From a bacterium (lineage in GTDB: Bacteria; SZUA-182; DTGQ01), in contig JBFMGO010000013.1 in NCBI GenBank assembly GCA_040752695.1, positions 1-64,000 on the forward strand: a stretch of 64,000 nucleotides of DNA. The letters run 5' to 3'. Below the pieces are notes generated by a model that was not told where the DNA came from, searched no databases, and was given only the letters and a program-made list of their open reading frames with translations. Position numbers and translations under genes: made by a program. Below are positions 1,827 through 28,704 of the stretch, one piece after another (position 1 is the first letter of the stretch; each line of letters begins with the position of its first letter).

Positions 1827-3200
1827 GTGATGAATAAAAAATCCCTTTCCGTGACACTTGCAGTCTTAATGCTGGGGGGGGTCATTTCATTTTGTGTTCC
1901 AGGTTCAGCAGAAGAAACAAAAAACAATAATATCGGGACGAGCGAGCATTCCGGGCGGAGACGATATCAAAAGCAGCCCCCTCCTTGTGATCTGCCATGC
2001 AACTTGGACAAGGATGGCAAGGATAAAGATAGTAAGAATGAAGATAATGAAGATAACCAAGGTAATGGAATCCCGGTTAAGATTAAGCAAAAAGATGCCC
2101 AAATTGAACTTGGGGGGGCTTTGATATGGAATTTCCATTACTTTAACGGAGCTCACAGTAAGAATATCCAAAAGGGCCATCCATGGTATAGCGAGTCAGA
2201 GTTGAGGCAGGCATCTATTAACCTGAAAAGCAAATTCAATAAAAACTGGCAGGCAGAACTTCAAGTCAGCTTTAACGACGATGCAGATCCAGGCTCGGAA
2301 ATCGATGACGCTGCTATTAAATTCACCGGATGGGATGATATTAATCTGATCATGGGAAAGGCCAAGGAACCATTTGGCCTGGAAGAATTGAACAGTTCCG
2401 GGGATATTACCGCCAATGAGCGATCTATGGCAACAAGTGCCTTTGCACCGGGTCGTCACCCTGGTCTGGGATTATTCGCAGATATGGGCCGTTTTACCTG
2501 GGCGATTGGTGTCTACAAGGCTATTGACCGCGAAGATAAGGGGGATACCTATGCCCTGACCGGCCGTTTGACTTTTGCTCCCTGGCAACACAAAAGCGGT
2601 GTGCTTCATTTAGGCCTTGCAGGGTCTGTGAGAGACTTTAGCGGTGAAAAATACGAAATCAAAGAGCGTGCCGAGGTGCACACCGCAGAAAAAGTTGTTG
2701 TCAGCAGCAAAATCCTGGCGGATACGGTCAGTCTTTTCGAGTTGGAGGCAGCCTGGGTTAAAGGACCCTTCTCACTGCAAGCAGAATACATGGCCGCATC
2801 GATAGAAGCGGATATCGGCGACAATGCAACCTATGCAGGGTATTACCTGCTCGGCAGTTATTGTTTAACGGGAGAATCCCGCCCATACAAAAATGGGACT
2901 TTTAGTGGGATCAAACCGAAATCCCGGTACGGTGCCGTTGAACTGATGTCCCGTTACAGCATCCTGGATGCTGAAGGTAAAAGTACGGACCCACACCGTA
3001 ATACTCCCGGAGTCAAGGCTGTTAACCTTACCTTTGGTGTGAATTATTATATAAACGAACAGGTGCGCCTGACAGCCAACTACATCGATACGAGACTTAC
3101 AGGTGATACATCGGATGCATCGAATGATAAAGATAGTGATGAAGACAGCAATAAAGACAGCGCAAATGCAATTTCCTTCCGTGTGCAATACAGTTTCTAG
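1827..3200 (+). CDS. Phosphate-selective porin, OprO/OprP family
   Basis: Signal peptide; motifs ELRQA, GKAKEPFGLEELNSS, ERS, E-x-AWVKGPFSLQAEY, LTGESRPY, YGAVEL-x-x-RYS, TFGVNYY; ends in the barrel signature RVQYSF. Confidence 0.9.
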   Translation: MMNKKSLSVTLAVLMLGGVISFCVPGSAEETKNNNIGTSEHSGRRRYQKQPPPCDLPCNLDKDGKDKDSKNEDNEDNQGNGIPVKIKQKDAQIELGGALIWNFHYFNGAHSKNIQKGHPWYSESELRQASINLKSKFNKNWQAELQVSFNDDADPGSEIDDAAIKFTGWDDINLIMGKAKEPFGLEELNSSGDITANERSMATSAFAPGRHPGLGLFADMGRFTWAIGVYKAIDREDKGDTYALTGRLTFAPWQHKSGVLHLGLAGSVRDFSGEKYEIKERAEVHTAEKVVVSSKILADTVSLFELEAAWVKGPFSLQAEYMAASIEADIGDNATYAGYYLLGSYCLTGESRPYKNGTFSGIKPKSRYGAVELMSRYSILDAEGKSTDPHRNTPGVKAVNLTFGVNYYINEQVRLTANYIDTRLTGDTSDASNDKDSDEDSNKDSANAISFRVQYSF

Positions 3201-3285
3201 CCATTGAGATCATGGAATTTCTCTTTATTCGTAACCACTGAGATTCTGGTATCATTCTTCTCCATGCTGCGCGCTGCTACGACTT

Positions 3286-3391
3286 ATATCCTGCATCCCT
3301 CATCCTGCATCCCGCATCCTGCACCCCGCATTCTGCACCCCGCATTCTGCACGCCGCATTCCGCGTCCTGCATCCCGCATCCCACCCTGCG
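3286..3391. repeat. Degenerate heptamer tandem repeat (CATCCTG/CATCCCG/CATTCTG)
   Basis: About 14 imperfect 7-bp units, intergenic downstream of the porin gene. Confidence 0.85.
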
Positions 3392-3489
3392 TACAAAAAA
3401 GGACGAGTTCCGTCGCGCCCTTTATCTGGCATAGGAGGGGTTACTTTCATGGATAAGGAAAAACCAGGTCATTATCACATCATTATCAC

Positions 3490-3530
3490 ATTCGACCCTT
3501 TGTGACTGTGAGTCGCCCGTACAGTCGAGT
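3490..3530 (+). promoter_or_regulatory. Putative enhancer (UAS) for a sigma54 activator, copy 1
   Basis: Contains CGCCCGTACAGTCG (3514-3527); its reverse complement aligns without gaps to the motifs at 17216, 23517 and 25500. Confidence 0.6.
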
Positions 3531-3605
3531 TCAATATAAAAGCCTGCGCTGTAGTGAAACTGGATTATTGATTAACTTTCAATACATTGTATGCTTGGCG
3601 GAAGT

Positions 3606-3620
3606 TGGCACAATAATTGG
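3606..3620 (+). promoter_or_regulatory. Putative sigma54 (-24/-12) promoter for the Gly/Trp-rich protein gene
   Basis: TGGCACAATAATTGG: perfect -24 box, GG-N10 spacing, -12 is GG instead of GC. Confidence 0.6.
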
Positions 3621-3936
3621 AAAAAGAATAATCAACAGGCAGTTTCAAGATGGCGTCAATGCTATGAGGACTGCCGTTTTAGGGAGAAATAATTCTCACG
3701 GAGCGAATTGCGGTACGTACAGTATAGAGTGTAATTGTAGATTGTGAAGGGGGGGATGATCAAAAGCCATAAACACAAGCTCGTGAGTGACTCCCAGGTA
3801 TTTTTTCAAAAAACGCATGTTCACCTGGTTAGGAAGAGACTGGAATTTTAAAGGCGCTGCATGACGCTGCATGGTACTGATCAATCAACCGAATTCGAAT
3901 TTTGAACAAATACTTATGAAGAGGATTTATCGAATT

Positions 3937-5298
3937 ATGAAGAGGAAGATATTTTTTGCCGTTTTCATTGTAAGCATAGCCATGCTCTTTGTCTCAGGTT
4001 CATCGATTTGCTCTAATGTGCAGGCCCAGGGCGGATGGGGAGGGCCATTCCAGACAGGCGGTGGCGCGTGGAGTTCCCAGTATTGGGGGTATGGCGGTGG
4101 AAGTCCCTTTATGGGTTATCCCTCCTCCCCTGCGGGGAGGGCCCCTTCGATGGGATACTCCTCCTATCCTTCGATGAGTTACACGGGAAACTTTACGCCG
4201 GTCCCTGTTAACATCGCTCTGCCGGTTTCAACAACTTCGGCTGCAAGCTCAACTACGGTAGAGCCAGCATTTGCCGGGAGTAGTGATGCCTGGCAGGCAT
4301 TTATAACGCAATTACAGGAAAAGTACCCCGATCTTGAAGGTGTAGATTGGGAAAACTCGGAAAACTGGACTGACGATGACTGGAAGCAACTGCGAGAAGC
4401 ATTATCAGAAGAAAGAAGCGCTCAGACACTCCAGAAGTTTATCGATAATTTGACTGAAAAATGGGACAGCTACGGCCTTTCCGACTGGGAAGAATTCAAC
4501 AGCAATTGGAACGCCTTCATTATAGATGTCCAAGCCGATGAAGATGATGATACTGCACTTACCTGGGCCGGTTTTCGAATTACCTACGGCTGCTTTGATA
4601 ATTCCGATCCTGAGAGCGGACCTGATCCTGATGATGTAAATTGCTGGCAGTCCTATGGTACATGGACGAATAAGCAATGGACAGATTTTCGCGGGTTATA
4701 CAATCGCTACGTTGACCATGAATGGCGAGAATTTTGCGAGATACTTCAGGCAAAATGGAATGATTACAATACCATAGACTGGGCAGATTGGCGCGGCTGG
4801 ACTGATGCGGATTGGGAAAAATGCCTTGCACAACTGAGCAGCTCCAGCAACAGAAGCAGTGCCGCACTGGTTAACTCTAATCTGGTGAGTTCTGGCCCTG
4901 GGTACGCATTCGGTCTTGATGCAGGCATAGGATACGCGGGCTGGGGTTTTTCGAGTGTTCCCGGTATGGGATACTCCGGCTGGAGTACCCCCAACAATAT
5001 GGGATATACTGTCAGCCCCGGTATAGGATACGCTTCTTTTAGTGCTCCCAGTGTCAATACAGCTCCCGGTGCCCTCAATGGAGGATTCTCCGGTTGGGGC
5101 GGGCCTGGATACGGATGGGGTGTCTCCAGTGAAGGATACACTGGCAGGAGCGCTAGCAGTGCTCCGAGCGTGGGATACGCTGGCTGGGGTTATTCGAATA
5201 CTGGCGGCATGGGATACTCCGGTTGGGGTGCTCCCGGCGGCTTCAGTGGGGGATACTCCGGTTGGGGTGTTCCCGGTGGAGGATTCTTTGGCTGGTAG
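3937..5298 (+). CDS. Secreted low-complexity protein: GY(S/A)GWG repeats flanking Trp/Asp-rich helical repeats
   Basis: MKRKIFFAVFIV...VQA signal peptide at 3937 (ORF track starts at 3871; alternative ATG 3916); repeated GYSGWG/GYAGWG; central W-x-x-W-T-D-x-D-W repeats. Confidence 0.8.
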   Translation: MKRKIFFAVFIVSIAMLFVSGSSICSNVQAQGGWGGPFQTGGGAWSSQYWGYGGGSPFMGYPSSPAGRAPSMGYSSYPSMSYTGNFTPVPVNIALPVSTTSAASSTTVEPAFAGSSDAWQAFITQLQEKYPDLEGVDWENSENWTDDDWKQLREALSEERSAQTLQKFIDNLTEKWDSYGLSDWEEFNSNWNAFIIDVQADEDDDTALTWAGFRITYGCFDNSDPESGPDPDDVNCWQSYGTWTNKQWTDFRGLYNRYVDHEWREFCEILQAKWNDYNTIDWADWRGWTDADWEKCLAQLSSSSNRSSAALVNSNLVSSGPGYAFGLDAGIGYAGWGFSSVPGMGYSGWSTPNNMGYTVSPGIGYASFSAPSVNTAPGALNGGFSGWGGPGYGWGVSSEGYTGRSASSAPSVGYAGWGYSNTGGMGYSGWGAPGGFSGGYSGWGVPGGGFFGW

Positions 5299-5408
5299 AC
5301 TTTTATAAAGCAGGCGGCAATGGTGTAAGAAAGGCTTTCAGTCCTTCCCAAAACACCGGAACGATGCCAGTGCCACCCGCTTTTTGGCGGAAAAAGCGGG
5401 TTTGCCTC

Positions 5409-5443
5409 AAGGGGGGACAGATTTTAAATCTGTCCCCCCTTTT
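5409..5443 (+). terminator. Perfect hairpin with T tail (terminator or REP-like palindrome)
   Basis: AAGGGGGGACAGATTT-T-AAATCTGTCCCCCCTT followed by T-rich sequence. Confidence 0.65.
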
Positions 5444-5593
5444 AACCTTTTAAAATCAGTCTTCCCTCTCCCCACCCATCTATTGAAAAAGAAACTGTAC
5501 AGGGAAAATTTTCCTGGGCAACAATACAGGCAAGGAGAAGGATGCAAACATGAAAGAGAAAAATTAGGGTACAATCATGAAAGAGAGAAACAG

Positions 5594-6313
5594 GTGATTG
5601 AAAGAGAAGGGCTGCAACTGAGACATGAGTTGAAGTACTACATCGACCCTCCGCAGTATAGAATCCTTCGAAGCAGGATGGCCGCGTTATTGCCGATGGA
5701 CCCGTATGCAGGGCCTGATGGACGCTATCATATCAGGAGCCTGTACTTCGATGATTTCAGGAACTCCGCCCTCTTCGATAAGCAGGCTGGTGTTGCCAGG
5801 CGGAAGAAATACCGGATGCGTATTTATAATTACAGTGATGCAGTAATCAAGCTCGAGCGCAAAACCAAGCTGAACGAGTACATAGGCAAGGAGAGCGTAA
5901 GGCTCACCAGGGAGGAAGCAGACCGCATACTGGCTGGTGATGTCGCCTTCCTGGCCCGCTCTGAAAAACGCCTGCTCAGGATCTTTTATCTGGAGTACCG
6001 CTGCAACCTCCTGCGGCCTAATGTACTGGTAGACTATCACCGTGAGGCGTATGTTTATCCGCTGGGCAATGTCCGGATCACTTTCGATATCAACGTGCAT
6101 ACGGGGCTTGGCTCTATGGCGATCTTCGATCGCGATGCCTTTACCGTCGGAGCCATCGAGGAGCCTGGCACAATTCTTGAGATCAAGTTTGATAATTTCC
6201 TTCCTCAAGTTATCCAAGGCCTGTTTCCAAGCACGATTCGGCCGCGGTTAACGATCGGGAAGTTCGTCATTTGTAAAAAGCACTCCAAATATAACGAGTG
6301 GGAGGATAATTAG
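5594..6313 (+). CDS. VTC-domain (polyphosphate polymerase domain, CYTH/TTM-like) protein
   Basis: RHELKY, Y-x-IRSLYFD, RKKYRMRIY, KLERK-x-K, VDYHREAY, VRITFD, ILEIKF motifs. Probable GTG start at 5594; the ORF track extends to 5384 through a hairpin. Confidence 0.92.
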   Translation: MIEREGLQLRHELKYYIDPPQYRILRSRMAALLPMDPYAGPDGRYHIRSLYFDDFRNSALFDKQAGVARRKKYRMRIYNYSDAVIKLERKTKLNEYIGKESVRLTREEADRILAGDVAFLARSEKRLLRIFYLEYRCNLLRPNVLVDYHREAYVYPLGNVRITFDINVHTGLGSMAIFDRDAFTVGAIEEPGTILEIKFDNFLPQVIQGLFPSTIRPRLTIGKFVICKKHSKYNEWEDN

Positions 6314-6982
6314 GTGCTTACCTTAGAAGAGTTATTCAATGTATTGAATAACATGTCCCAGGCCAACAAGTCTCTCACGGTGTCGAGGGTGATTCTGACA
6401 CTGCTGCTCACCTTTATCGTTGCTCAATTCATGTTTTATGTCTATCGCAAGACCTTCAAAGGGGTTCTCTATACCAGAAACTTCAATGTCGGCCTGGTAA
6501 TGATTGCCCTGGTGACAGCGTTGGTTATCATGCCCATCAGTTCCAACATTTTCCTCTCTCTTGGGATGGTAGGAGCCCTCAGCATTGTGCGTTTTCGCAC
6601 TGCCGTCAAGGATCCCATTGATACGGTGTTCCTGTTTTGGGCTATAGGGGTGGGGCTTTGCTGTGGAGCAGGTTTCTACATAGTGGGTATCGTAGGAAGC
6701 CTCATGATCGGGCTCTTCCTGTTCCTGATGAACCAGGTGGACTTAACCGGCGCTGAACCTTACCTCCTGGTAGTCCACTATGAAAATGGTGCCGAGGGAG
6801 CGCTTCAGGATGTCCTCCCTGCACACAAACTGAAGTCTCAAACCATAACCGCTGCCGGAGTGGAATTGATGATCGAGGTACGTATGAAAGCAAAAGATGC
6901 CACCGGCGTGGATAATCTGCTGAGAATCAAAGGAGTGAAAGATGCCGCTCTCATCAGCTATAATGGTGACTATGTATCTTGA
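6314..6982 (+). CDS. DUF4956 family membrane protein
   Basis: LSLGMVGALSIVRFRTAVKDP-x-D-x-x-FLFWAI-x-x-G signature; starts immediately after the VTC stop codon. Confidence 0.92.
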   Translation: MLTLEELFNVLNNMSQANKSLTVSRVILTLLLTFIVAQFMFYVYRKTFKGVLYTRNFNVGLVMIALVTALVIMPISSNIFLSLGMVGALSIVRFRTAVKDPIDTVFLFWAIGVGLCCGAGFYIVGIVGSLMIGLFLFLMNQVDLTGAEPYLLVVHYENGAEGALQDVLPAHKLKSQTITAAGVELMIEVRMKAKDATGVDNLLRIKGVKDAALISYNGDYVS

Positions 6983-7024
6983 TAACGTAGGATTTTTTTC
7001 CCTTTCAGGTGGGGTCTTAAGAAA

Positions 7025-7930
7025 GTGAAAATTTTGAATAGAAATAGTATTATTTTAAAAATATTCATTATGACTTTATTTCTCCTGGTTATGGTTACGA
7101 CCAGTAAGCTCGTTTTTAAATATGGTACTATTATTGATAACCTTCAATCTATCCAGATTGAAGATATCAACTTCCCCTATGATTTACACAATCCCTCAAA
7201 TAAATTCAAACTGCCTCATGAGTTGGATGAAATTTCCGGTTTATCCTATTTAAGACAGAACGAACTGGTGTGTATACAGGATGAGAAAGAAGCTGTTTAT
7301 GTATTCGATATTGCTAAAGAAAAAATAATCAATGCCTGTAAGTACGGAAAATCGGGAGATTGTGAAGACGTTGCGGTCGTGAAAAATACTATCTACGTTT
7401 TGGAAAGCAACGGCCATATCTACGAAATAGAAAAATTCGAGAAAAAAAATCACAGAGTGAAAAGGTACAAGGCCCTGGTATTATCGAAGGAAAATAACAC
7501 CGAAGGATTGGCTTTTGATGAGGGATCCTATTCATTGCTGATTACCTGTAAAGGTTCCCAGGAGATTGAAGAGCAGGATGTTAACCTAAGGGGGAAAAAA
7601 GCGATCTACCGGTTTGACTTGAATACAAAAAAGATTTCTCCTAAACCGGCTTACGCAATTAATGTAAAAAATATGGGTGGGGGAACTTTTCAACCGTCAG
7701 GGATTGCAGTCCATCCAATAACGAGACAGATTTACATGATTTCTTCGGTTGACAAAACGCTCCTTGCTTTGAATCAGCAAGGAAAAATTATAGCGGTTGA
7801 AAAGTTAAATAGAAAAATTTTCAAACAGCCGGAAGGAATTTGCTTTAATTCTCATGGAGATTTGTTTATTTCAAATGAAAGCAGAGATGATGGTAAAGCA
7901 AATATACTGGAATTTAAATACAAGCAATAA
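7025..7930 (+). CDS. SdiA-regulated/YjiK-like beta-propeller protein, membrane-anchored
   Basis: EISGL, IQDE, GDCEDVA, NTEGL, FQPSGIAVHP, QPEGICF, LFISNE blade motifs; N-terminal TM segment. Confidence 0.8.
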   Translation: MKILNRNSIILKIFIMTLFLLVMVTTSKLVFKYGTIIDNLQSIQIEDINFPYDLHNPSNKFKLPHELDEISGLSYLRQNELVCIQDEKEAVYVFDIAKEKIINACKYGKSGDCEDVAVVKNTIYVLESNGHIYEIEKFEKKNHRVKRYKALVLSKENNTEGLAFDEGSYSLLITCKGSQEIEEQDVNLRGKKAIYRFDLNTKKISPKPAYAINVKNMGGGTFQPSGIAVHPITRQIYMISSVDKTLLALNQQGKIIAVEKLNRKIFKQPEGICFNSHGDLFISNESRDDGKANILEFKYKQ

Positions 7931-7984: not shown

Positions 7985-8173
7985 CATAGATGAGCATCGC
8001 TCCACGATTCACCTTTCATTGCAAAAACCCATCCCATGCACTCCATCATGCAACTCCTCAATTTTCATAGTTGTCACCGGAAATTATCAATTGTCATCAG
8101 AAGTTATCAGTTTTCATCAGAGCTTATCAAGGGAGACCGCATTATTATAAAAAAGTCAGGAGACATCATCCTT

Positions 8174-9853
8174 ATGAAAAGGTTAATTGCTGTTATTATG
8201 CTTACATTCATCTGCCTGCATACTCCCGCCACATATGGTGGAAAAGCTGAGGCGCTTTTTGAAAATGCTGCTCCTGCCGGGGCCAGCCTGGCGTCTATCC
8301 AATTCACCAAGCTCTTCATCAACGAATTCATGGCCGATAACAAAACCACTGTTAAAGACGCCGACGACAAGTCGGGGAGCTTTGAAGATTGGATCGAGCT
8401 GTACAATGCCGATACCAGTGCCATTGATCTTGGCGGAATATACCTGACCGATAACCTGACCAACCCGACTAAATGGCAAGTCCCTGTGGGGGTTATCATT
8501 CCCTCTGGCGGCTATCTGCTTTTCTGGGCAGATGAAGATGAAAAGCAGGGGAATACGCATACCAACTTCAAACTGAGCAAGGACGGGGAGGCAATTGCCA
8601 TTATAGGGAAAGATGGTGTGACGGTAATAGACTCAATCGCATTCGGAGCCCAGATCATAGACGTTTCTTATGGTCGGTACCCTAACGGCAAAGCCGACTG
8701 GGGATTCATGAAAGCGACGCCGGGTGCTGCAAACAATCTGCATAATGCCCCGCCGGAAATAAGCGGTACGATGCACGCACCCCCGTCGCCTGCCAAAACC
8801 GATCAGGTTTTTGTAACAGCTACGGTTACGGACAAAGACGGTGCTGTTGCGGATGTTACACTTACCTATATGGCAGCGGGCAGCAAAGCGGTGATCGTCA
8901 GGATGTATGATGACGGCACACACTCCGATGCCGGAGCCGGTGACGGCCTTTTCGGCGCCGGCATTCCCGCTTTCGGCCAGGATACGGTTTTAAACTACTC
9001 TATAACCGCAACCGACAATCTCGGGGCTCAATCAACGGCCCCTCCAGCAGCACCGAAAGTGACCTTCACCTATGTCGTTGGTTATACGCCACCTTTGATC
9101 TACATCAACGAGTTCATGGCAGACAGCAATGCCAGTGTCAATTCAAGCATGAATGCTAGTGTCAATTCAAGCATGAATACCAGCCGCTCCAGCATAAATG
9201 TAACCCACAATACCGCCAATGGCACAACGGGAAACGAGGATTGGATCGAGCTATATAATGGTGGTACCAGTTCCGTCGATCTCGGCGGCATGTACCTGAC
9301 CGACAAGCTGGCCGACCGGACCCAGTGGCGGATTCCCGAAGGCGTTACCATTCCTGCCGACGGTCATCTGCTGTTCTGGGCAGATGGCAACAACGAGCAG
9401 GGTAGCATGCATGCCAGCTTCAAACTCAGCAAGGACGGTGAGGCGATTGGACTATTCGATACGGATGTAAAGGGGAATATGCCCGTTGACACGGTAACGT
9501 TCGGGGAACAGGTTGCGAACCTTTCCTGTGGAAGAATTTACGATGGCGCAGAGCCCTGGGTGCTTTCTGAAAATGCCACTCCCGGCACCCCGAATTTTTT
9601 CCCCGCCGGGATGGATAGTTTTATATGGAAATTTTCCTATATCATAGACAGTTATACGATTATACAAAAATTCCCCGGCAGCGTAAATGCCATCAAAGGG
9701 ATGAATACGGATTCAGATCAGTGGGAAGCCGCTTATCCCCTCTGGGGGAATCCAGCAGGCGTTCATTTCCCTGTGATGCCAGATGGTATCTATTACCTAT
9801 CAGTAACCTCGCCAAACTCTGTCTGCTTTAAAGGAAACGTGTTCAGCAAATGA
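8174..9853 (+). CDS. Secreted protein with two lamin-tail domains and a central DDG-x-H-x-D-x-x-AGDG (choice-of-anchor X-like) domain
   Basis: INEFMAD...DWIELYN...LTD...LFWAD...FKLSKDGE...TPG twice; signal peptide from ATG 8174 (track start 8036). Confidence 0.85.
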   Translation: MKRLIAVIMLTFICLHTPATYGGKAEALFENAAPAGASLASIQFTKLFINEFMADNKTTVKDADDKSGSFEDWIELYNADTSAIDLGGIYLTDNLTNPTKWQVPVGVIIPSGGYLLFWADEDEKQGNTHTNFKLSKDGEAIAIIGKDGVTVIDSIAFGAQIIDVSYGRYPNGKADWGFMKATPGAANNLHNAPPEISGTMHAPPSPAKTDQVFVTATVTDKDGAVADVTLTYMAAGSKAVIVRMYDDGTHSDAGAGDGLFGAGIPAFGQDTVLNYSITATDNLGAQSTAPPAAPKVTFTYVVGYTPPLIYINEFMADSNASVNSSMNASVNSSMNTSRSSINVTHNTANGTTGNEDWIELYNGGTSSVDLGGMYLTDKLADRTQWRIPEGVTIPADGHLLFWADGNNEQGSMHASFKLSKDGEAIGLFDTDVKGNMPVDTVTFGEQVANLSCGRIYDGAEPWVLSENATPGTPNFFPAGMDSFIWKFSYIIDSYTIIQKFPGSVNAIKGMNTDSDQWEAAYPLWGNPAGVHFPVMPDGIYYLSVTSPNSVCFKGNVFSK

Positions 9854-13000: not shown

Positions 13001-13196
13001 ACCCCATCCTCGAAATTGTAAAAAGCCCACTTTGAGAGCTTATAATAATATCAATTTTAAGCTATTATAAAACAATCGCTTAAGATAACAGGGAAGATTC
13101 GCAGGTTATTGGATATAGGCGATATCCCTTGGACACGAGTGATATTGAATCGCAGGCGTACGTACACTCAAGCCCCTGTGACCTTATTCATCACAA

Positions 13197-17134: not shown

Positions 17135-17149
17135 TCAAATATCGTGCCA
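17135..17149 (-). promoter_or_regulatory. Putative sigma54 promoter of the CotH lipoprotein gene
   Basis: Minus strand reads TGGCACGATATTTGA. Confidence 0.7.
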
Positions 17150-17356: not shown

Positions 17357-17377
17357 ATCCAGTTATAACGGTGAATG

Positions 17378-20300
17378 TTAATCCAGACAGCTTGGCTGTG
17401 TTAAATATTTTTTAAAGATACAAAGAGCGTCCGATGGAGTAACACTGCCATCCATGTTTACATCAGCATTATCGGAGCAGGTGGCTAATCCAAGGTAGCA
17501 CTGAAACGCAGCAAGAGAATCTGCCGGAGTAATATTTCCATCTCCGTTAAGATCGCCATTGTTGGGCTGTACAGGGGGATTATTTACATCAGGGCCGGTC
17601 TGGCTTACAAAATTCGAGGAGCCGGGAGTAGCATTTTCAAAAAACACCCAGGATTCACCACCATCATACATCCTCCCTTGAGAAATATTCGTGGTCTGCT
17701 GTTCAAATACCACGGTATCAATGGCCACATTCCCCTTTGCCTCCGTATCGAACAGCCCAATTGCTTCACCGCCCTTGCCGAGTTTGAAGTTAGTATGAGT
17801 ATTGCCCTGCTTTTGATCTTCATCGGCCCAGAAAATCAGATAACCTCTGGCCGGGATGCTGACTCCCTCCGGGATCTGCCACTTGGTCGGATTATTCAGA
17901 TCATCGGTCAGATACATCCCAGCCATAAGTACAGGCGAATCAGCCGGATTATAAATTTCGATCCAATCCTCAAAACTCCCTGGTTCATCAGGGTCTTCGA
18001 TCGTGTTGTCATTGTCAGCCATAAACTCGTTAATAAAGAGTAAAGAAGTTGACCCAACCGGTGGCTGGAGTCCCGCGGTATCACCTGCCAGGATTTCAAA
18101 TGCGGCTGATTTGGTAAAGGTTATACCCTGCCCGCCCTGCATCGTGCCCCCGGCGACTGAAGCCTGAGCACCATCTGGGAATTGAAATCCGGCTGGCGGC
18201 TGGGCGCCGCTTGGAGGCTGAAATCCCGCAGGCGGCTGGATACCGCCCGGAGGCTGGAACCCCGTGGGTAGCTGAGTACCACCTGGAGGCTGGAATCCGG
18301 TCGGTGGCTGCATATCAGTTGGAAACTGAAATCCGGCCGGTGGCTGGATACCGCCTGGCATCTGGCCACCAATAGGCTGTTGAAAGCCACCTGTCCCCGA
18401 TATCTGCGGTGCAGGAAATTCGATGGATACATCCTTCATTCCAGGTGGTTCGTTTCCTGGAATGTCAAATATGGACGTTATCTCCAGTCCATTGCGACTT
18501 GTGTCTTTCCCTGTCAGAGTACCAATCTTCACACTCGATGGCAGTGTATCAGAAGGAAACATGGTAATCATCCGTTGATTTAACGTTATGGTAACCACTA
18601 CACCCATATCACCCTGTTTCGCTTGAAGAGGAGAGATAAGTTCAATCGCTGACGGCGCTTCATTTGCTGACGGCGCTTCGCCTCCGGAAACTGTCCCTGA
18701 TCCAGGATTCTCACCAACGGAACCGTTCCCAGGGTAATGAGAAAGGAGATTATCGCCATTCGGAGTCGGCCAGGGCAATATCTGGAATGGGCCTGTTCCG
18801 TTCGGATTTCTCCCATAGGATACATTCGCCTCTTGTTTTCCAAATGCGACCAGATCGATAAGGTCATTCCCCAACTCGTCCGTATTCACCAGCATGACGC
18901 TTTCCCCATCGGTCGAGAGCTTGAAATTGGCGTGGAGACCAGGCGTATCGTTGTCATCTTCATCCGCCCAGATTATGAGATAAGCTCCGGGGTCCAGTGT
19001 TGTCCCTTGCGGTATTTTCCATTTTCGCGGTGTGTCTTCCGTATCGCTCAGATACATTCCCGAAAGATCTATCCGCTGATCGCCGACATTCAAAAGCTCG
19101 ATCCAATCCTCATACTCTCCCTGCGGGTCCTGGATAGTTGCTTCGTTCTTCGCCATCACCTCATTGATGACAACAGGAGTGTATTCGTCGGTGGCTATGA
19201 ATACACGGTATGCGAATACGCGATCTTCGGCCCCGGATGGCGCAAAGGTGCTGCTTTGAGCGGTATCAGTGGCAGGTGCTCCCTGTGCCGCAGGGGCTCC
19301 CTGGACTATGGAGCCCTGGGAAGCACGGGCTTCAACGTAATAACGGACCAGACTGCCAGCAGGGAAAGGAGGAATTATGCCGCCGAAGATCCCATCGCCC
19401 GCTTCGCCATCTCCATGTGCACCATCATCGAACATGGAAACCTGCACGAATGGACCAGCAACCCCTTGAGCGTAGTGAAGGATCACCTCCAGGCTGCCGC
19501 CCGCTCCTTCAACATCGGCTGTTATTTCTACGGATTGCCAGGAGAAAGGCGACTCACCAGCTTCCGGCGTTATGGTACGGACAACTGAATAAATGTGAGG
19601 AACCTGCCTGTTTATCTCCGCGTAGTTGAGCAGGTAATCCCGGCGATTATTGATAAAATCCTCGATATCCGTGAAACTTGCTTCAAATTGATCATTGGAA
19701 TACAATTTCTTGGTATCCGCCCTGACTTCATCGGCAATCAGTGCCTTATACGCTTCAATTTTCGGTGCGAGGGCGTTCCAATTGAACCATTCGTCTAAAA
19801 TGGTCCTCACGTGTGCCAGGTAACGCTGACGAAACTGAGGGACGGCTAAAAGCCTGCTTATTACAGGCCGGCTTGCACTGTTCGTGCCTTCAACCGGACT
19901 CAGGTTGATAAAACGAGCATCGAAGGTCTCATTGCCATCGTGTTCCAAGGGATGGATTCGACCTGTTTCCACTTCGTAATAGATCTGATAATCCCAGCCC
20001 TTAGTAAGATAGCCATCCTCGTCCGTAAAGATGTTTTCCACTGCCAGAAACCATAGCCATCGATCGACAGCCAGGACAGTGTCCACAACGCCCGGCAGTT
20101 GCTCCAGGGGCGTATTATTCAGGATGTTACAGGTCGTTATCAGGTGCCCCCACGGATCATCTGTTTTCGCTGTCTTTAATTCGTAGGCCCGTTCATATGC
20201 AGTTGTGTCAGTTCCTAACCAACTTAAAGCGCCGTCACTACCACCAAACATCATGATATTACCACCGCCAATTCCACCACCAAACCTTCCACCGGCATCA

Positions 20301-21781
20301 ATCATGTTAGCATCAACAAACGCCCCGCCAAAGCCACCCGTACCCCATCCAGCAGTACCCCAGGCACCCCATGCAACAGCTCCGCCCGTGCCGCCGGCAG
20401 CAGGAACCATGTTGGGATCACCAGCCGGCATCGCCCAGGGCGTACCGCCTGGAACCATGCCGCCAGGAACCGTACCACCTGGAACCGTACCGCCAGGGGC
20501 CGTACCACCAGGAATCATGCCGCCAAAAAAGCCAATTGTACCGCCGGCGGCAGGAACCATGTTGGGATCGCCAACTGGCATCGCCCAGGGCATGCCACCA
20601 GGTACCATGCCGCCAGGAATTGTACTACCAAGAACTGTACCACCAGGAATCATGCCACCAAAAAAGCCAATTGTACCGCCGGCGGCAGGAACCATGTTGG
20701 GATCGCCAACTGGCATCGCCCAGGGCATGCCACCAGGTACTCCAGGAACCGTACTACCAGGAACCATACCGCCAGGAACCATACCGCCAACCATACCGCC
20801 TGCACCAGGAACCATGTTGGGATCGCCAATTGGCATCACTCCAGGTTGACCTTGAAGGTTCGTCCAGAAGTCCATAAGAATGGTATAATCATCTTCCGTA
20901 ATCTGGCCATCACCATTCATATCCATCGCCATAGGACTGGCTGCCCATTCCTCAAAAGACATCTGTTGCGGGAATCGATTGGAAGGAAACCTCTGGCTGC
21001 GCATAAGAATGGTATAATCTTCCTCCGTAATCAGGCCGTCACCATTCGCATCCTGCGCCTCAGGACTATCCAGCCAATCTGAAAATGACGGCTGCTGAGC
21101 GGCGGTAAAAACTCCTCCCTGGCCGCCACCCATTCCCCCTCCTACCTTCCAGCGGTCACCATCACTGCTTTGGAACCATTCTTCGATGAGGTCTGAATTG
21201 TTTTGTTGCGCATTGACGTAAATTCCCCAATTCTCGCCGTTAATGATCAGCTTGACAAAATTTGCTTTAGGGCATGGTATATATTTTCTCGCAATATCGA
21301 AATAGAGTACCTCGCGAATAAACGAGGGGTCCAAAGCGGCGTTATTCAGATTCAAGGTCTTATATCCCATCAGTCTTTGATCAGGATCTGTTTCATCGAT
21401 CTCGATGTTAAAAGATTTCTTCTGGGAATTTCCTGCCATCATATATGATGTCATTCCCTTGAATCTGACACCAACACCATGATACGTAACCCCATCCATG
21501 GTAAGATCAGCCAGAACATTCGCGTCTCCACCTGCGTTGTGGTTATTTATCATCTGCTGCCACCAGTCCTGCTGGGCAAAATCAAGGCTTATCGTACGTA
21601 ATACAGTCTCGTCATATAGGCTGGATTTGGCTGGAGCAGCCGTATCGGAAACTATCTCGTCTATTGCTGTTGACTCAGTTATTACCGCCTGTTGTGCTCC
21701 TCCAGCATACCCTGCTGATAAATAAAACACAGCCAGTGCTGCTGCAAAGGTTACATATTTTCGTATCGTGAAACTCTTCAT
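17378..21781 (-). CDS. Large secreted multidomain CotH kinase (CotH with EF-hand-like and Gly/Met/Pro insert, anchor-X-like domain, LTD, Ig-like, LTD, dockerin-like)
   Basis: Signal peptide; GVRFKG-x-TSY, KKSFNI, IREVLY, WGIY-x-N-x-QQ, D-x-DGY, LEHDGNETF; two INE...DWIE LTDs; C-terminal GDLNGDGNITPAD / ADVNMDGSVTPSD. Confidence 0.92.
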   Translation of the reverse strand: MKSFTIRKYVTFAAALAVFYLSAGYAGGAQQAVITESTAIDEIVSDTAAPAKSSLYDETVLRTISLDFAQQDWWQQMINNHNAGGDANVLADLTMDGVTYHGVGVRFKGMTSYMMAGNSQKKSFNIEIDETDPDQRLMGYKTLNLNNAALDPSFIREVLYFDIARKYIPCPKANFVKLIINGENWGIYVNAQQNNSDLIEEWFQSSDGDRWKVGGGMGGGQGGVFTAAQQPSFSDWLDSPEAQDANGDGLITEEDYTILMRSQRFPSNRFPQQMSFEEWAASPMAMDMNGDGQITEDDYTILMDFWTNLQGQPGVMPIGDPNMVPGAGGMVGGMVPGGMVPGSTVPGVPGGMPWAMPVGDPNMVPAAGGTIGFFGGMIPGGTVLGSTIPGGMVPGGMPWAMPVGDPNMVPAAGGTIGFFGGMIPGGTAPGGTVPGGTVPGGMVPGGTPWAMPAGDPNMVPAAGGTGGAVAWGAWGTAGWGTGGFGGAFVDANMIDAGGRFGGGIGGGNIMMFGGSDGALSWLGTDTTAYERAYELKTAKTDDPWGHLITTCNILNNTPLEQLPGVVDTVLAVDRWLWFLAVENIFTDEDGYLTKGWDYQIYYEVETGRIHPLEHDGNETFDARFINLSPVEGTNSASRPVISRLLAVPQFRQRYLAHVRTILDEWFNWNALAPKIEAYKALIADEVRADTKKLYSNDQFEASFTDIEDFINNRRDYLLNYAEINRQVPHIYSVVRTITPEAGESPFSWQSVEITADVEGAGGSLEVILHYAQGVAGPFVQVSMFDDGAHGDGEAGDGIFGGIIPPFPAGSLVRYYVEARASQGSIVQGAPAAQGAPATDTAQSSTFAPSGAEDRVFAYRVFIATDEYTPVVINEVMAKNEATIQDPQGEYEDWIELLNVGDQRIDLSGMYLSDTEDTPRKWKIPQGTTLDPGAYLIIWADEDDNDTPGLHANFKLSTDGESVMLVNTDELGNDLIDLVAFGKQEANVSYGRNPNGTGPFQILPWPTPNGDNLLSHYPGNGSVGENPGSGTVSGGEAPSANEAPSAIELISPLQAKQGDMGVVVTITLNQRMITMFPSDTLPSSVKIGTLTGKDTSRNGLEITSIFDIPGNEPPGMKDVSIEFPAPQISGTGGFQQPIGGQMPGGIQPPAGFQFPTDMQPPTGFQPPGGTQLPTGFQPPGGIQPPAGFQPPSGAQPPAGFQFPDGAQASVAGGTMQGGQGITFTKSAAFEILAGDTAGLQPPVGSTSLLFINEFMADNDNTIEDPDEPGSFEDWIEIYNPADSPVLMAGMYLTDDLNNPTKWQIPEGVSIPARGYLIFWADEDQKQGNTHTNFKLGKGGEAIGLFDTEAKGNVAIDTVVFEQQTTNISQGRMYDGGESWVFFENATPGSSNFVSQTGPDVNNPPVQPNNGDLNGDGNITPADSLAAFQCYLGLATCSDNADVNMDGSVTPSDALCIFKKYLTQPSCLD
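20390..20840 (-). repeat. Coding tandem repeats (about 135-150 bp units, PxGDPNMVPAAGG) with nested 15-bp PGGxV units
   Basis: GCAGGAACCATGTTGGGATC recurs; near-identical blocks 135 bp apart (about 20547 and 20682). Confidence 0.9.
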
Positions 21782-22110
21782 AACCTTATCTTCCTCTTTC
21801 TCTATAGTATAATATAATTTTATTGGTGGGAATTTTTATTTTGTATGTAAGGCTTCCCAGGAGCTAAGTACAGACAGCGATAAAAAAACGACAGGATAAA
21901 CCGATATCAACAAAGCACACTAATCGTTATTCCGAATGAAATCGGAAATGACAGGTGGCCGCGATTTTGCTTGAGAGTGTCCGCAAAAAGGACAAGGTCA
22001 ACCAAACGCGTAATTCCCGCGGCCTGCACTAAGTCTCCTCTTACAATAACTCTCTCCCCTTCAGGGGCAATGTTATTAACTTTTGATTTCCATACCATTC
22101 CCTTTCCCTG

Positions 22111-23364
22111 TTACGCCGGATTGAAAAAGCCCACCCCCCCAGCGTCTTTCCTAAAAATTAACGTTACGTTACGCGAGGCTGAAGCATTTGGGCAGGGTGG
22201 GTAATTGCTGCCACTTAGAAATATGCCTTTATCATCATCCAGGGCAAATTCCCGGTCAAAGAGTAAAGTTACCTGACGAAAAAGAAGCGATGGAGGAGAT
22301 GTTCCATTAGCCCTACCAGGAGTTGGAGTCAGAGTCTGACTATCTCCCGTGCCATCGGGCAGGCGGCCGAAGCTCGTGCCGCCTGGCGCATCCCCTGCCT
22401 GCCAGTCCAGTACATCCACAATGTTGGAATCCAGATAATAGAGCGTAACACAGTCATCAGAGCCTAGTTTAAATGGTACATAATACGAGCCATCATCAGG
22501 CTCTTTATCCGTAGCCTGGATAACGATAAATTCCCCAGGCTCTAAAAGAACAGTGGGCAGGGGTGCAGGCTCACGCCCTTCACTATCGTCAACCAGCGAG
22601 TAATCTCCCAGAGAAACCGGCTCCTCACCAGTGACATAAAGCTCAATCCAGTCACTGCCGCCGCCAGCGTCATTGGCTGCAATCTCGTTGATGACCAGCG
22701 CAGGTTTTGCAGCCCCTGACGGCGGAGTTTCATTTGAAGGCGGAGTTTCACCTGAAGGCGGGGTTTCCCCGACCGGCGGAGTCTCACCGGATGCGGCAGC
22801 AGCCTTGTTCATTGCATTCGGAGTCGGAGTCAGGGTTTGACTATCTCCCGTGCCATCGGGCAGGCGGCCGAAGCTCGTGCCGCCTGGCGCATCCCCTGCC
22901 TGCCAGTCCAGTATATCCACACGATAAAAATCCAGATAATAAAGAGTGACGCAGTCATCAGGGCCCAGTTTGAATGGTACATAATAGGAACCATCTTCAG
23001 GCTCTTTATCTCCTGCCTGGATAACGATAAATTTACCGGGCTTTAACGTAATGTCAGGCAAAGGTTCGAGCTTACGACCTTCGTTATCGTCAACCAGGGA
23101 ATAATCTCCCAGGAAAACCGGCTCATCACCGATGACATAAAGCTCAATCCAGTCATTGCCTCCATCAGAACTCTCGGCTAGGACTTCGTTGATGACCAAC
23201 CCGCCAGGGCCGCTCTTAACCTGGTCACCACATGCCAATTGAAATAACATGCCTATGAATACTGCAATCAGTCCAATTTGCCTTAGCTTTTTACTCACCG
23301 GGCACTTTAGCCTTTCATGGTTAATTATTTCTGTACTGTTGTTCACTCCGAATCCATAGTGCAC
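22111..23364 (-). CDS. Lipoprotein with two tandem lamin-tail domains
   Basis: Lipobox FQLAC (an alternative GTG at 23298 gives a normal-length signal peptide); LVINE...DWIELY...SFGRLPDG...PTP twice; GETPPS linker. Confidence 0.85.
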   Translation of the reverse strand: MHYGFGVNNSTEIINHERLKCPVSKKLRQIGLIAVFIGMLFQLACGDQVKSGPGGLVINEVLAESSDGGNDWIELYVIGDEPVFLGDYSLVDDNEGRKLEPLPDITLKPGKFIVIQAGDKEPEDGSYYVPFKLGPDDCVTLYYLDFYRVDILDWQAGDAPGGTSFGRLPDGTGDSQTLTPTPNAMNKAAAASGETPPVGETPPSGETPPSNETPPSGAAKPALVINEIAANDAGGGSDWIELYVTGEEPVSLGDYSLVDDSEGREPAPLPTVLLEPGEFIVIQATDKEPDDGSYYVPFKLGSDDCVTLYYLDSNIVDVLDWQAGDAPGGTSFGRLPDGTGDSQTLTPTPGRANGTSPPSLLFRQVTLLFDREFALDDDKGIFLSGSNYPPCPNASASRNVTLIFRKDAGGVGFFNPA

Positions 23365-23425
23365 CTTTTAAACCTTCACCTTCTGTTCTGTGATAGAGTT
23401 TCCCCCACGTCTATGATCCTTTTGC

Positions 23426-23440
23426 TCAATTATCGTGCCA
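23426..23440 (-). promoter_or_regulatory. Putative sigma54 promoter of the LTD lipoprotein (and possibly large CotH) unit
   Basis: Minus strand reads TGGCACGATAATTGA. Confidence 0.7.
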
Positions 23441-23516
23441 AACCGATCTGGTCGGTATAACATATTGGAAATTAATCAATAGCATTAGGGTTACCAGAGA
23501 ATGGGGAGATTGGTAA

Positions 23517-23560
23517 ATTCGACCGAACGGACGGTTTGTAAAACCAAACGGGCGAGTCAT
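23517..23560 (-). promoter_or_regulatory. Putative enhancer (UAS), copy 3
   Basis: CGACCGAACGGACG at 23520-23533 plus a second site 21 bp away. Confidence 0.65.
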
Positions 23561-23664
23561 AATCAACATAAGGATTTTATGAAGGAAATACCAACTCCCT
23601 CTTTTCTATAGGAAGGAGACTGGGGGAGAGGAAGCAGTATCTAAGCCGAAGTAAGACATATGTT

Positions 23665-25068
23665 TCAAGACCGGTCAGATTTATTCTTCAGCCCCAATTT
23701 TTCCAGTCGGGAGCGCAGGTGCCTCTCCGTGATGCCTAACAGTCTGGCTGCTGCACTTTGGTTCCCATTGCTGCGTTTCATTGCTTCTTTAACCATTTCA
23801 CCCTCGAAGGCTCTCATTTTCTCTCCATAACCATCAGATATATTGCAGGGATTTAAGATCTCTTTTCCGGAAACGGTCTGGAGTTGTCCAGGTAAGTCAT
23901 TCTGCGTGATATACTCAGTCCTGCACAGGACCACAGCTCGTTCAATGATATTTTCCAGTTCGCGAACATTTCCCCGGTATTCGTATTTCATAAGGTGATC
24001 CAATGCTTCTCGAGTAATACCTTTAAGCTTTTTATTATTTTCACTGGAAAATTTTTCAATAAATTGGTCGATTAATACGGGAATATCCCTTTTTCGACGC
24101 CGCAGCGGCGGAAGCCATACCGTGACCACATTGAGGCGATAATACAGGTCCTCTCGAAATTCTCCGTTTTTGATCATTTCTTCAAGGTTCCTATTGGTGG
24201 CTGCAACGATGCGCACATCTACCTGAATGGTTTTATTCCCACCCAGTCGCTCGATTTGTCCAAATTGAATGGCCCGCAATAATTTCACCTGAACTGACAG
24301 AGGGATATCACCAACTTCGTCAATAAATAACGTCCCGCCATTGGCCTGTTCGAAACGGCCGATTCTCTGCTGTGTTGCGCCGGTGAAGGCTCCTTTCTCA
24401 TGGCCGAATAATTCACTCTCCAGCAGACTTTCCGATAAGGCAGCTACATTTACCACTACCCAGGGTCTATTCTTTCTGGGACTGGCATAATGAATCGCTC
24501 TTGCGATCAATTCCTTGCCAGTACCGCTTTCCCCGCGCACCAGAACGGTCGTTTTACTTGGTGCAACCCGGCCTGCCATGTTCAGTACCTCTTCCATGTC
24601 ACTACTTTGGGAAAAAATACCATCGAGTTTACATCTATCCTGCAACTGCTGCTTCAGGTTTCGGTTTTCAGCGACGAGCTGCCGCTTTTCCCGTACCCGT
24701 TTGATAAGATGTTCCAGTTCATCCAGATCCACCGGTTTAGCCAGATAATCATAGGCACCAGCTTTCATAATTTCTACAGCATTCTCAACACTTTCATATC
24801 CCTGGTCGTTATAATGGCCGGTCATGATAATCACTTCAATGTCCGGATTGACCTCTTTGACATTTTTTAAAACCGTAAGCCCATCACATTCAGGCATACG
24901 AAGGTCCGATATCACCAGATCGATAGTATTTTTTCGGACGATTTCACAGCCGATTCGACCATTTGCGGCAGTGAAGACTCCATAGCCCTGACGGGTTAAA
25001 AAAGTGTTGAGTAATTTTAGCTGTTCATCTTCATCGTCTATTAATAAAATAGTTAAGGGCATAGTCAT
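23665..25068 (-). CDS. Sigma54-dependent response regulator (NtrC/AtoC/ZraR family: REC-AAA+-HTH)
   Basis: LIDDE...DLRMP receiver; [49 protein letters not shown]; Fis-type [15 protein letters not shown]. Confidence 0.97.
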
Positions 25069-25119
25069 AAGTAAGGATTCCTATGGTAGTTGTTCACGGA
25101 AGTTATTCATGGTAACTGT

Positions 25120-25263
25120 TCATGGTAATTGTCCCGATAAGAAAACTATTCCCGCTGACGAGGGGGGTATTCTTGATTCTGTTTTTCCATAAAGGATTAA
25201 ACTGGTGAGTTTATCGAAAATACCGCCTTGTTTCGGGCAATCGGCTTGGGGTAATTCCACCAT
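25120..25263 (-). CDS. Possible 47-aa small ORF between the sigma54 promoter and the regulator
   Basis: AAGGAGG SD before ATG 25263; translated by hand as MVELPQADCPKQGGIFDKLTSLILYGKTESRIPPSSAGIVFLSGQLP. Confidence 0.35.
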   Translation of the reverse strand: MVELPQADCPKQGGIFDKLTSLILYGKTESRIPPSSAGIVFLSGQLP

Positions 25264-25399
25264 TCCTTATGCCTCCTTTCTTGTTTTTTCGGGCATAAGG
25301 CAGTTAGAATTCACCCCATCTATTAATATCCGTTCCGGTCCAAAATCTGTTCCGGTCTCTATTGATTCTTAATCAAGGGTGGTTCTGTTATATCCATAA

Positions 25400-25414
25400 T
25401 CAAATATTGTGCCA
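25400..25414 (-). promoter_or_regulatory. Putative sigma54 promoter of the regulator gene (autoregulation)
   Basis: Minus strand reads TGGCACAATATTTGA. Confidence 0.7.
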
Positions 25415-28703: not shown

Positions 28704-28704
28704 C

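Follow-up and report, generated by a model that had tools for sequence, protein, structure and literature searches.

How can a bacterium place polyphosphate outside its cytoplasm, and what fuels the kinases that it exports? Both open questions are touched by a 24-kb gene block (positions 1827 to 25414) in the window, the stretch of 64,000 nucleotides analysed here (contig JBFMGO010000013.1, assembly GCA_040752695.1, lineage SZUA-182). In this block, a VTC-domain enzyme is followed directly by a DUF4956 membrane protein, and the pair is accompanied by a porin, two CotH kinases, three proteins with lamin-tail domains (LTD) and a sigma54 activator. The block is a real, conserved system, and we infer a function in polyphosphate export and in use of the polymer by CotH. 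From sequence comparison, we prefer to read it, with a rough probability of 0.4, as a sigma54-controlled envelope module that would export polyphosphate via a VTC/DUF4956 core and the porin, with the CotH and LTD proteins as users.

In the proposed module, VTC would use ATP to polymerise polyphosphate on the inner side of the cytoplasmic membrane, and DUF4956, probably as an oligomer, would conduct the growing chain into the periplasm, like the yeast VTC complex with an unrelated membrane domain. The porin, of OprO/OprP type, would offer an outer-membrane path for the polyanion or for phosphate released from it, taking the role of the HlyD adaptor and TolC of another phylum. At the envelope, a YjiK-like beta-propeller, the three LTD proteins and the two exported CotH proteins would bind the polymer, use it or be organised by it.

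A conserved gene block around VTC and DUF4956

A preliminary description of this DNA had listed the porin, a Na/Pi importer, the VTC-DUF4956 pair, two CotH kinases, three LTD proteins, a Ser/Tyr/Gly/Trp-rich protein and the sigma54 activator. We found all members of this gene set, named beforehand, by open reading frame (ORF) listing and Pfam scans. The genes around the core are these:

977..1627, plus strand: hyp977, a membrane protein of 216 amino acids (aa) and of no family (Pfam and NCBIfam without hit)
1827..3200, plus strand: OprO/OprP-family porin, VTC-linked subtype (Pfam Porin_O_P, 2.8e-59)
3871..5298, plus strand, likely start 3916 or 3937: Gly/Ser/Tyr/Trp-rich exported protein (from composition and charge)
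5594..6313, plus strand, frame open from 5384: VTC-domain enzyme (Pfam VTC, 8e-35)
6314..6982, plus strand: DUF4956 membrane protein (Pfam DUF4956, 7.6e-11)
7025..7930, plus strand: YjiK-like (SdiA-regulated family) beta-propeller, membrane-anchored (Pfam, 5.2e-10)

The genome (6.05 Mb, 96.6% complete) has its sole VTC match, its sole DUF4956 match, both CotH genes and six of its seven LTD matches within these 24 kb, a clustering of the four families in one stretch that is beyond chance. Synteny comparison showed the gene set to be retained in relatives of the same phylum, which we sampled with 20 genomes, all draft assemblies and several of them incomplete. The eight VTC-positive relatives mostly have the same succession of genes, from hyp977 and the porin through VTC and DUF4956 to the propeller and an LTD protein. 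In five of them (G003, G007, G009, G010 and G011), the porin gene directly precedes VTC and is itself directly preceded by the hyp977 orthologue; the region upstream of VTC is different or ended by the contig end in G005 and G006, and G012 is rearranged. In the window, the gene for the Gly/Ser/Tyr/Trp-rich protein sits inserted between porin and VTC.

Two further samples were used for comparison. One comprised the 80 best VTC loci of the species collection, which has at least 598, with neighbours counted within 10 kb; the other comprised 301 genomes of a second phylum (149 VTC-positive, 152 VTC-negative).

The VTC enzyme carries the residue set of catalytic Vtc4

The VTC match spans profile positions 2-229 of 235 (PF09359), which is the full-length domain, and with its probable start, GTG at 5594, the protein has 239 aa, a length shared by its relatives. 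Neither the protein alone nor a profile of close relatives gave a match in the PDB. We found that a broader profile, A5 (24 VTC-domain proteins with identity down to 22%), matches the catalytic domain of yeast Vtc4 (3G3Q, 2.1e-16, 63 bits) better than the non-catalytic Vtc2 (36 bits) and Vtc3 (27 bits).

Among the 27 invariant positions of A5, 16 are charged residues in strand-like alternation. In the A5 alignment, invariant K14, R74, R76, K90, K99, R150, R161, E196 and K223 correspond to Vtc4 K200, R264, R266, K281, K294, R361, R373, E426 and K458, with Vtc4 numbering counted by hand along chain 8I6V_E. K200, K281 and K458 are reportedly catalytic tunnel residues, according to the 2009 structure paper. 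The triple mutant R264A/R266A/E426N of Vtc4 was the inactive VTC form for the cryo-electron microscopy structure (PMC9911596). These correspondences make the window protein a candidate Vtc4-like polyphosphate polymerase.

Vtc4 itself has features that the window protein lacks: we found no SPX domain in the 239 aa with Pfam, and no DUF202-type membrane domain matched anywhere in the genome. The bacterial proteins also have a glutamate (E12) at the position of Vtc4 Thr198. Tunnel-fold hydrolases carry a Glu-x-Glu-x-Lys motif. Hence, with E12 in place of Thr198, the bacterial motif is nearer to that of the hydrolases.

PPK1 was found in none of the 20 phylum genomes (0/20), and this genome gave only a marginal PPK2 match (22.7 bits over 44 residues); a Ppx/GppA gene is present. 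As far as the sequences tell, VTC is the only recognisable polyphosphate synthase in this PPK1-less lineage.

The prokaryotic VTC-domain family is large (15,772 representative clusters at E up to 0.001), and the window's VTC and DUF4956 proteins are each 60-68% identical to archaeal relatives. A 2023 review surveys the distribution of the VTC domain across eukaryotes (PMC10657179); literature searches, with subscription journals outside their coverage, returned no biochemical study of a prokaryotic VTC-domain protein. Many VTC-domain proteins elsewhere (P0241, P0250 and about 40 others, 420-620 aa) have an N-terminal extension of 200-400 residues, rich in Lys/Arg/Pro/Gln and apparently disordered; its start motif is conserved, and it contains no membrane segment.

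DUF4956 is the close partner of VTC

The DUF4956 start codon comes directly after the VTC stop, and the two genes are translationally coupled. Elsewhere, 70 of the 80 VTC loci had a DUF4956 ORF at a distance of up to 10 kb. In the 67 loci with calls for both ORFs, the two always shared a strand (67/67) and were no more than 100 nucleotides (nt) apart in 54. The same 9 of 20 phylum genomes have both VTC and DUF4956 (9/9 VTC-positive genomes). The second phylum gave DUF4956 in 146 of 149 VTC-positive genomes, together with seven DUF4956-only genomes, mostly from sub-threshold hits.

Moreover, the two domains occur fused in single proteins in both orders, DUF4956-VTC (P0248, P0282) and VTC-DUF4956 (P0283). 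Hence, both ends of DUF4956 lie on the side of the ATP-using enzyme. This topology agrees with the four-transmembrane, intracellular-ACT topology printed for Streptococcus intermedius SIR_1592 (PMC12345266). Being adjacent, co-oriented, co-occurring and fused both ways, VTC and DUF4956 behave as one unit, as had been proposed. Apparent CotH-VTC and CotH-VTC-DUF4956 fusions (P0265, P0272, P0292) were rejected: no membrane segment stands between the exported CotH and VTC, and the proteins look like merged gene calls, with an internal start after gene-end-like sequence and truncated domains.

For the DUF4956 protein, four helices are predicted, followed by an ACT-like domain (beta-alpha-beta-beta-alpha-beta) at the C-terminus, in a model with a predicted local distance difference test score (pLDDT) of 59 and a predicted template modelling score of 0.32. 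The alignment contains an invariant basic stretch around R93, R95 and K99. A DUF4956 profile found no relative among solved structures. Against MgtC, Pfam gave 3.2e-4 and 21.5 bits (cut-off 31.4), a weak likeness over the last helices and the tail, and the NCBIfam MgtC/SapB model gave 3.8e-7 and 29.9 bits (cut-off 214); both scores are far below the cut-offs, and the conserved motifs differ. In G012, a second DUF4956 gene, on a separate contig, lies 12 kb from that genome's copy of the VTC-linked porin subtype (contig C36, 10402-23612).

This remote likeness, over membrane helices and ACT-like tail, bears on a reading in which no polymer crosses the membrane: DUF4956 would be an MgtC-like regulator with an ACT sensor, and VTC a tunnel-fold phosphohydrolase or signalling enzyme acting on it. 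MgtC acts by protein contacts (as cited in PMC12345266), E12 leans the same way, and DUF4956 occurs without VTC in Acidobacteriota (see below). We consider this regulator reading improbable, given that the full Vtc4 polymerase residue set is invariant in 24 proteins down to 22% identity, that A5 favours the catalytic Vtc4 over Vtc2 and Vtc3, and that a regulator would be unexpected as the lone inner-membrane gene of the HlyD-TolC operons described next.

A porin stands where another phylum has an export-type duct

The nearest solved relatives of the window porin are OprO (4RJW, 3e-33) and OprP (2O4V, 5.6e-31), which suggests an OprO/OprP-type porin of the phosphate-selective class. It shares the Porin_O_P barrel with these Pseudomonas proteins; the Pfam match begins at residue 120, and the window protein differs from them by about 100 extra N-terminal residues and by its place in a VTC/DUF4956 cassette, not in a Pst/Pho operon. 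It is one of two paralogues in the genome, the second, on contig C64, being lower-scoring. The high-scoring subtype was present in 8/9 VTC-positive vs 1/11 VTC-negative phylum genomes.

Eight loci of another phylum were picked for a VTC-DUF4956 spacing of about 4 kb, and five of them were scanned with Pfam. All five (5/5) have the order DUF4956, HlyD-family adaptor, OEP/TolC, VTC, and Pfam found no other inner-membrane pump in them; this core is often followed by CotH/LTD proteins. The window shares the core and instead has Porin_O_P and a membrane-anchored propeller, and neither a HlyD adaptor nor an OEP was found in it with Pfam. Hence, the porin occupies the place that the duct has elsewhere. 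Our literature searches found no published description of DUF4956-HlyD-TolC-VTC operons.

The HlyD-family adaptors of the duct operons (L104 5947-8001, L105 5332-7392, L106 5839-7902) are often about 685 aa long, and the long ones have a C-terminal domain with a weak DUF6929/DUF6910 match. The idea that the window's propeller is this domain in detached form was unsupported: BLASTP was not significant, and hhalign gave a probability of 12.6% (E 0.0023) for what is blade-level likeness.

A porin also accompanies DUF4956 in Acidobacteriota. In locus L115 (1-7509), one of seven distant relatives found with the porin, DUF4956 is followed by Porin_O_P, CotH and a purple-acid-phosphatase-like enzyme, and a convergent PPK1 gene lies next to this set. 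Seven acidobacterial loci were collected as relatives of the L115 DUF4956, itself included, and in six of them (L115, L118, L119, L120, L121, L122) Porin_O_P comes directly after DUF4956, together with CotH. Five of these six also have the phosphatase-like gene, and L119, where it is not seen, is truncated by a contig end. We found no VTC domain in the five acidobacterial genomes searched, and PPK1 in all of them (5/5). Because DUF4956 pairs with CotH and a porin in the absence of VTC, DUF4956 looks like the hub of the system, for which VTC (or PPK1) would be the feeder inside and CotH the user outside.

The porin and the Na/Pi transporter had been proposed to feed phosphate to the system. This part of the proposal was not supported, as the transporter is not conserved at the locus (Na/Pi-PhoU has only fragmentary matches, in G012 and G006) and the porin looks more like an outer-membrane member of the cassette. 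A related reading is phosphate economy alone, in which VTC/DUF4956 would build a reserve in cytoplasm or periplasm, porin and Na/Pi transporter would import phosphate, and CotH and LTD proteins would be co-regulated with a separate job. It would suit the missing PPK1 and the Ppx/GppA gene, the presence of the porin, Na/Pi-PhoU and, more distantly, a PstS-like binding protein in one window, the induction of the OprO and OprP uptake channels on phosphate limitation (PMC9769906), and the storage function of yeast VTC (PMC9911596). We regard it as unlikely, since it accounts neither for the tracking of VTC by CotH across phyla, nor for the HlyD and TolC duct, nor for the persistence of DUF4956-porin-CotH sets without VTC, and the Na/Pi transporter it relies on is unconserved.

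Short imperfect direct repeats (units like CATCCTGCA / CCCGCAT) lie at 3290-3400, between the porin gene and a sigma54-like site.

Exported CotH kinases accompany VTC and DUF4956

The window encodes two CotH proteins:

15064..17022, minus strand: CotH1 kinase, lipoprotein-like (Pfam CotH, 1.6e-65)
17378..21781, minus strand: CotH2, 1467 aa, divergent CotH with two LTDs and a dockerin (Pfam)

CotH1 aligns with the kinase core of Bacillus cereus CotH (5JD9) and retains the equivalents of B. subtilis D228 and D251, which are catalytic/metal-binding residues there (PMC7821199). It thus has the catalytic Asp and the metal-binding Asn/Asp, and its N-terminus has a hydrophobic segment with a lipobox-like Cys; export signals were judged throughout by eye and hydropathy. 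CotH2 has a signal-like N-terminus and keeps the catalytic Asp. Its kinase domain is split by a Gly/Pro/Met-rich insert of about 290 residues, and it carries EF-hand-like loops below Pfam cut-offs and an NCBIfam choice-of-anchor X domain match. The expectation of two exported CotH kinases with recognisable catalytic motifs therefore stands in full for CotH1 only; in CotH2, the other two of three positions differ from CotH1.

In the window, CotH lies 8 kb from VTC/DUF4956, on the opposite strand. With a CotH-domain hidden Markov model built from the loci, we found CotH within 10 kb of 61 of the 80 VTC loci, at 1 kb or less in 57 of the 58 with a measurable distance. An earlier figure of 74/80 loci was dropped because its single-linkage cluster had mixed in LTD-only proteins. 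A hydrophobic segment precedes the kinase domain in 61 of 65 linked CotH ORFs; of the four without it, three are truncated by the end of a contig or locus. At genome level, CotH is present in 6 of the 20 phylum genomes, all six within the nine VTC-positive ones, and in 136/149 VTC-positive vs 31/152 VTC-negative genomes of the second phylum. Hence, the linkage of VTC/DUF4956 to exported CotH, which the preliminary description had set as a test, is strong.

Some cases speak against a strict VTC-to-CotH dependence: VTC/DUF4956 occurs without CotH in most archaeal loci and in 3/9 phylum genomes, and DUF4956-CotH occurs without VTC in 5/5 acidobacterial genomes.

A stronger version of CotH involvement makes exported polyphosphate the direct phosphoryl donor with which CotH would modify Ser/Tyr-rich surface proteins, such as the 3871-5298 product, in an ATP-poor compartment. 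The linkage would suit this donor reading, as would the nearly universal export or anchoring of linked CotH and the placement of a Ser/Tyr-rich exported protein behind a sigma54-like motif in the same block. Exported purple-acid-phosphatase-like enzymes, present in 19/80 VTC loci and in the acidobacterial loci, would fit reversible phosphorylation outside, and a porin selective for phosphate polyanions would give the donor access to the surface. We nevertheless hold polyphosphate to be a rather unlikely donor: CotH1 retains the catalytic residues of the ATP-dependent Bacillus enzyme and nothing favours another donor, most archaeal loci and three phylum genomes do without CotH, no aggregation defect is reported for the VTC mutant of S. 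intermedius in the available part of PMC12345266, and our literature searches found no polyphosphate-dependent kinase of CotH fold.

Equally doubtful is a more elaborate scheme, secretion by polymerisation, in which VTC-driven growth would push the chain through a DUF4956 pore, with the OprO-like porin as exit. This would carry phosphoanhydride energy to the ATP-free surface, where CotH would phosphorylate an LTD-held Ser/Tyr-rich matrix, with exported phosphatases reversing this in other lineages.

The 3871-5298 protein is a candidate kinase substrate or matrix protein. Its N-terminus is hydrophobic and signal-like, both ends are rich in Gly/Ser/Tyr/Trp, and the part between them is acidic (net charge -28) and rich in Trp; the protein appears mostly disordered (Atlas model with pLDDT 0.38 and no look-alike). 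A homologue was found only in G010, 7 kb from VTC there, so that it is present in 2/9 related loci.

Sigma54-type motifs mark several genes of the block

We searched for the pattern TGGCA[CT]-N5-TTGA and found four exact sites in the window, compared with 51 in the 6.05-Mb genome, which also has rpoN. The motifs and the structure preceding VTC are these:

3606..3620, plus strand: sigma54-like -24/-12 motif with one mismatch, upstream of the Gly/Ser/Tyr/Trp-rich protein gene
5373..5445, plus strand: two GC-rich hairpins followed by T runs, terminator-like (read from the sequence, after the Gly/Ser/Tyr/Trp-rich protein gene)
17135..17149, minus strand: sigma54-type motif upstream of CotH1
23426..23440, minus strand: sigma54-type motif upstream of the LTD lipoprotein gene
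25400..25414, minus strand: sigma54-type motif upstream of the activator gene

Three of the exact sites are the minus-strand ones in this list; the fourth (6166-6180) is inside the VTC gene, 148 nt before DUF4956. In relatives, the motif occurs about 100 nt upstream of VTC in 5/8 loci, and also upstream of hyp977, CotH and LTD genes. Genome-wide, sigma54-type sites end in TTGC 104 times, in TTGA 51 times and in TTGT 22 times, and the sites of the locus have TTGA, not the usual TTGC. Sites with TTGA may belong to a sub-regulon, or the ending may be a habit of the lineage.

Points that weigh against polyphosphate export

Several points count against an export module. All co-occurrence counts above are raw, with shared ancestry uncorrected. 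The DUF4956-porin-CotH sets without VTC mean that DUF4956 does not need VTC, and DUF4956 is unrelated to the membrane domain of yeast VTC. Its model is poor (pLDDT 59), and therefore we make no claim of a pore. Its nearest named relative, MgtC, is a known regulator, not a channel. In the window, no clear sigma54 motif lies directly upstream of the VTC gene, which follows the two hairpins. OprO and OprP are uptake channels for pyrophosphate and phosphate (PMC9769906), and the direction of transport through the porin is not readable from synteny. In S. intermedius, deletions of DUF4956 and of CotH cut aggregation by more than 50% in ASM, and the available part of PMC12345266 reports no such effect for the VTC deletion.

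Relation to known systems

The preliminary description held VTC-DUF4956-CotH neighbourhoods to be recurrent and mechanistically unexplained. This is correct, yet the triad was already in print: CotH, polyphosphate polymerase and DUF4956 (with DUF4832 in some) are accessory genes of Gram-positive Pel loci (PMC7112168), S. intermedius SIR_1592-1594 is the same triad with deletion phenotypes (PMC12345266), and the triad is also in a locus table of Clostridium perfringens (PMC2879425). PMC12345266 remarks that the three genes are syntenic nowhere except in Pel loci. Here, Pel-type neighbours accompany just 15 to 18 of the 80 VTC loci; hence, that remark fails. Other contexts of VTC include the purple-acid-phosphatase-like enzymes of 19 loci and, in archaea, Cthe_2159 proteins in 10 loci.

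The Pel cassettes and the window have the same three families, with CotH secreted and, in the published cases, DUF4956 with four transmembrane segments and an intracellular ACT domain (PMC7112168, PMC12345266). The window organism differs in being a diderm without Pel genes and in adding the porin, the propeller, the LTD proteins and the sigma54 activator. Contiguous pelDEADAFG and DUF4832 were not found in the window, and DUF3492 (PelF) was not found in the genome (96.6% complete).

The yeast VTC complex (Vtc4/Vtc3 or Vtc2/Vtc1; 3G3Q, 7YTJ, 8I6V) has the same tunnel domain with the same key residues, and in both systems a soluble polymerase domain is tied to a small membrane protein. Yeast VTC couples synthesis to passage via a channel of five TM1 (first transmembrane) helices with a positive path (PMC9911596). 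In contrast, the window enzyme is a free-standing protein, its partner has MgtC-like four helices and an ACT-like tail, not a DUF202-type domain, and the target would be periplasm or surface, not the vacuole. If true, the export reading would give a second, independently built solution to the task of the eukaryotic VTC complex.

With the Bacillus CotH-CotG-CotB module (5JD9; PMC7821199), the window shares the Asp/Asn/Asp of CotH1 and a Ser-rich, low-complexity candidate substrate encoded nearby. It differs by having exported proteins, no spore context, and a divergent second CotH that carries LTDs and a dockerin in the same protein. The organism had been described as a diderm with no spore genes in view, and we agree: porin and TonB receptor are present, and no spore genes were among the window ORFs scanned.

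What is new here is a variant with a porin, in a background without recognisable PPK1, together with the set of propeller and LTD proteins and a sigma54 regulon. The window is a compact test case, with intact VTC residues, a partner that is fused to VTC elsewhere, a dedicated porin, one canonical and one divergent CotH, and a candidate substrate. If export is correct, it would also give a handle on the CotH proteins of pathogens and commensals that have the same triad.

Accessory genes of the module

The remaining genes of the block are these:

8036..9853, plus strand, likely start 8174: exported protein with two lamin-tail domains (Pfam LTD, 7.6e-32, two stretches)
10091..13030, minus strand: UPF0182 large membrane protein (Pfam, 8.4e-294)
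13197..14846, minus strand: Na/Pi cotransporter (Na_Pi_cotrans) fused to PhoU domains (Pfam and NCBIfam)
22111..23364, minus strand: lipoprotein-like protein with two LTDs (Pfam LTD, 2.6e-23)
23665..25068, minus strand: NtrC-type response regulator and sigma54 activator (Pfam Sigma54_activat, 1.1e-72; Response_reg; HTH_8)

The propeller is present in exactly the same 9/20 genomes as VTC and DUF4956. It has an N-terminal membrane helix and a model with pLDDT 82.8, and its best PDB match is Escherichia coli YjiK (3QQZ, E 4.3e-12); its fold matches (YjiK, NHL, glutaminyl cyclases) point to no function. The Atlas yielded no usable lead for the 3871-5298 protein, and for hyp977 only a likeness of its model to MxaH/MoxZ (TM-score 0.56/0.70).

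The 8036-9853 LTD protein has a signal-like N-terminus, and its orthologue follows the propeller gene in G005, G006, G007, G009, G010 and G011. The 22111-23364 protein has a lipobox-like Cys, with orthologues in G005, G009 and G011. UPF0182 adjoins the module in G009, G010, G011 and G012 and only 1/80 VTC loci elsewhere; in G012, a sigma54-type motif precedes its gene.

These surface proteins bear on a last reading, in which exported polyphosphate and calcium would deposit as surface mineral or matrix on a scaffold of LTD proteins, CotH2 and the acidic Trp-rich protein. It would draw on the EF-hand-like loops and dockerin of CotH2, both calcium-binding modules, on the acidic centre of the 3871-5298 protein (net -28) between Gly/Ser/Tyr-rich tails, and on the LTDs that accompany phosphoesterases acting on polyanions (PMC6085458). 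As these hints are all indirect, the EF-hand matches fall below Pfam cut-offs and the acidic protein is in just 2/9 related loci, we judge mineral deposition highly improbable.

Neighbouring genes in the window

One further gene was listed beyond the block:

25939..28074: TonB receptor (Pfam)

The TonB-dependent receptor forms a tight operon adjoining the locus (25939-32096) with a YfiR/HmsC-like protein, a CHASE8 histidine kinase and a response-regulator/kinase hybrid. The first three of these genes also adjoin the VTC locus in G009, and a TonB receptor adjoins it in G005. At 57554-63027, the PstS-like phosphate-binding protein adjoins a Cache hybrid histidine kinase and a GGDEF/receiver/HD-GYP protein, a possible link of phosphate sensing with cyclic di-GMP. 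A protein of 953 aa encoded at 44492-47353 combines a sulfatase/phosphodiesterase-type domain with a long TPR array.

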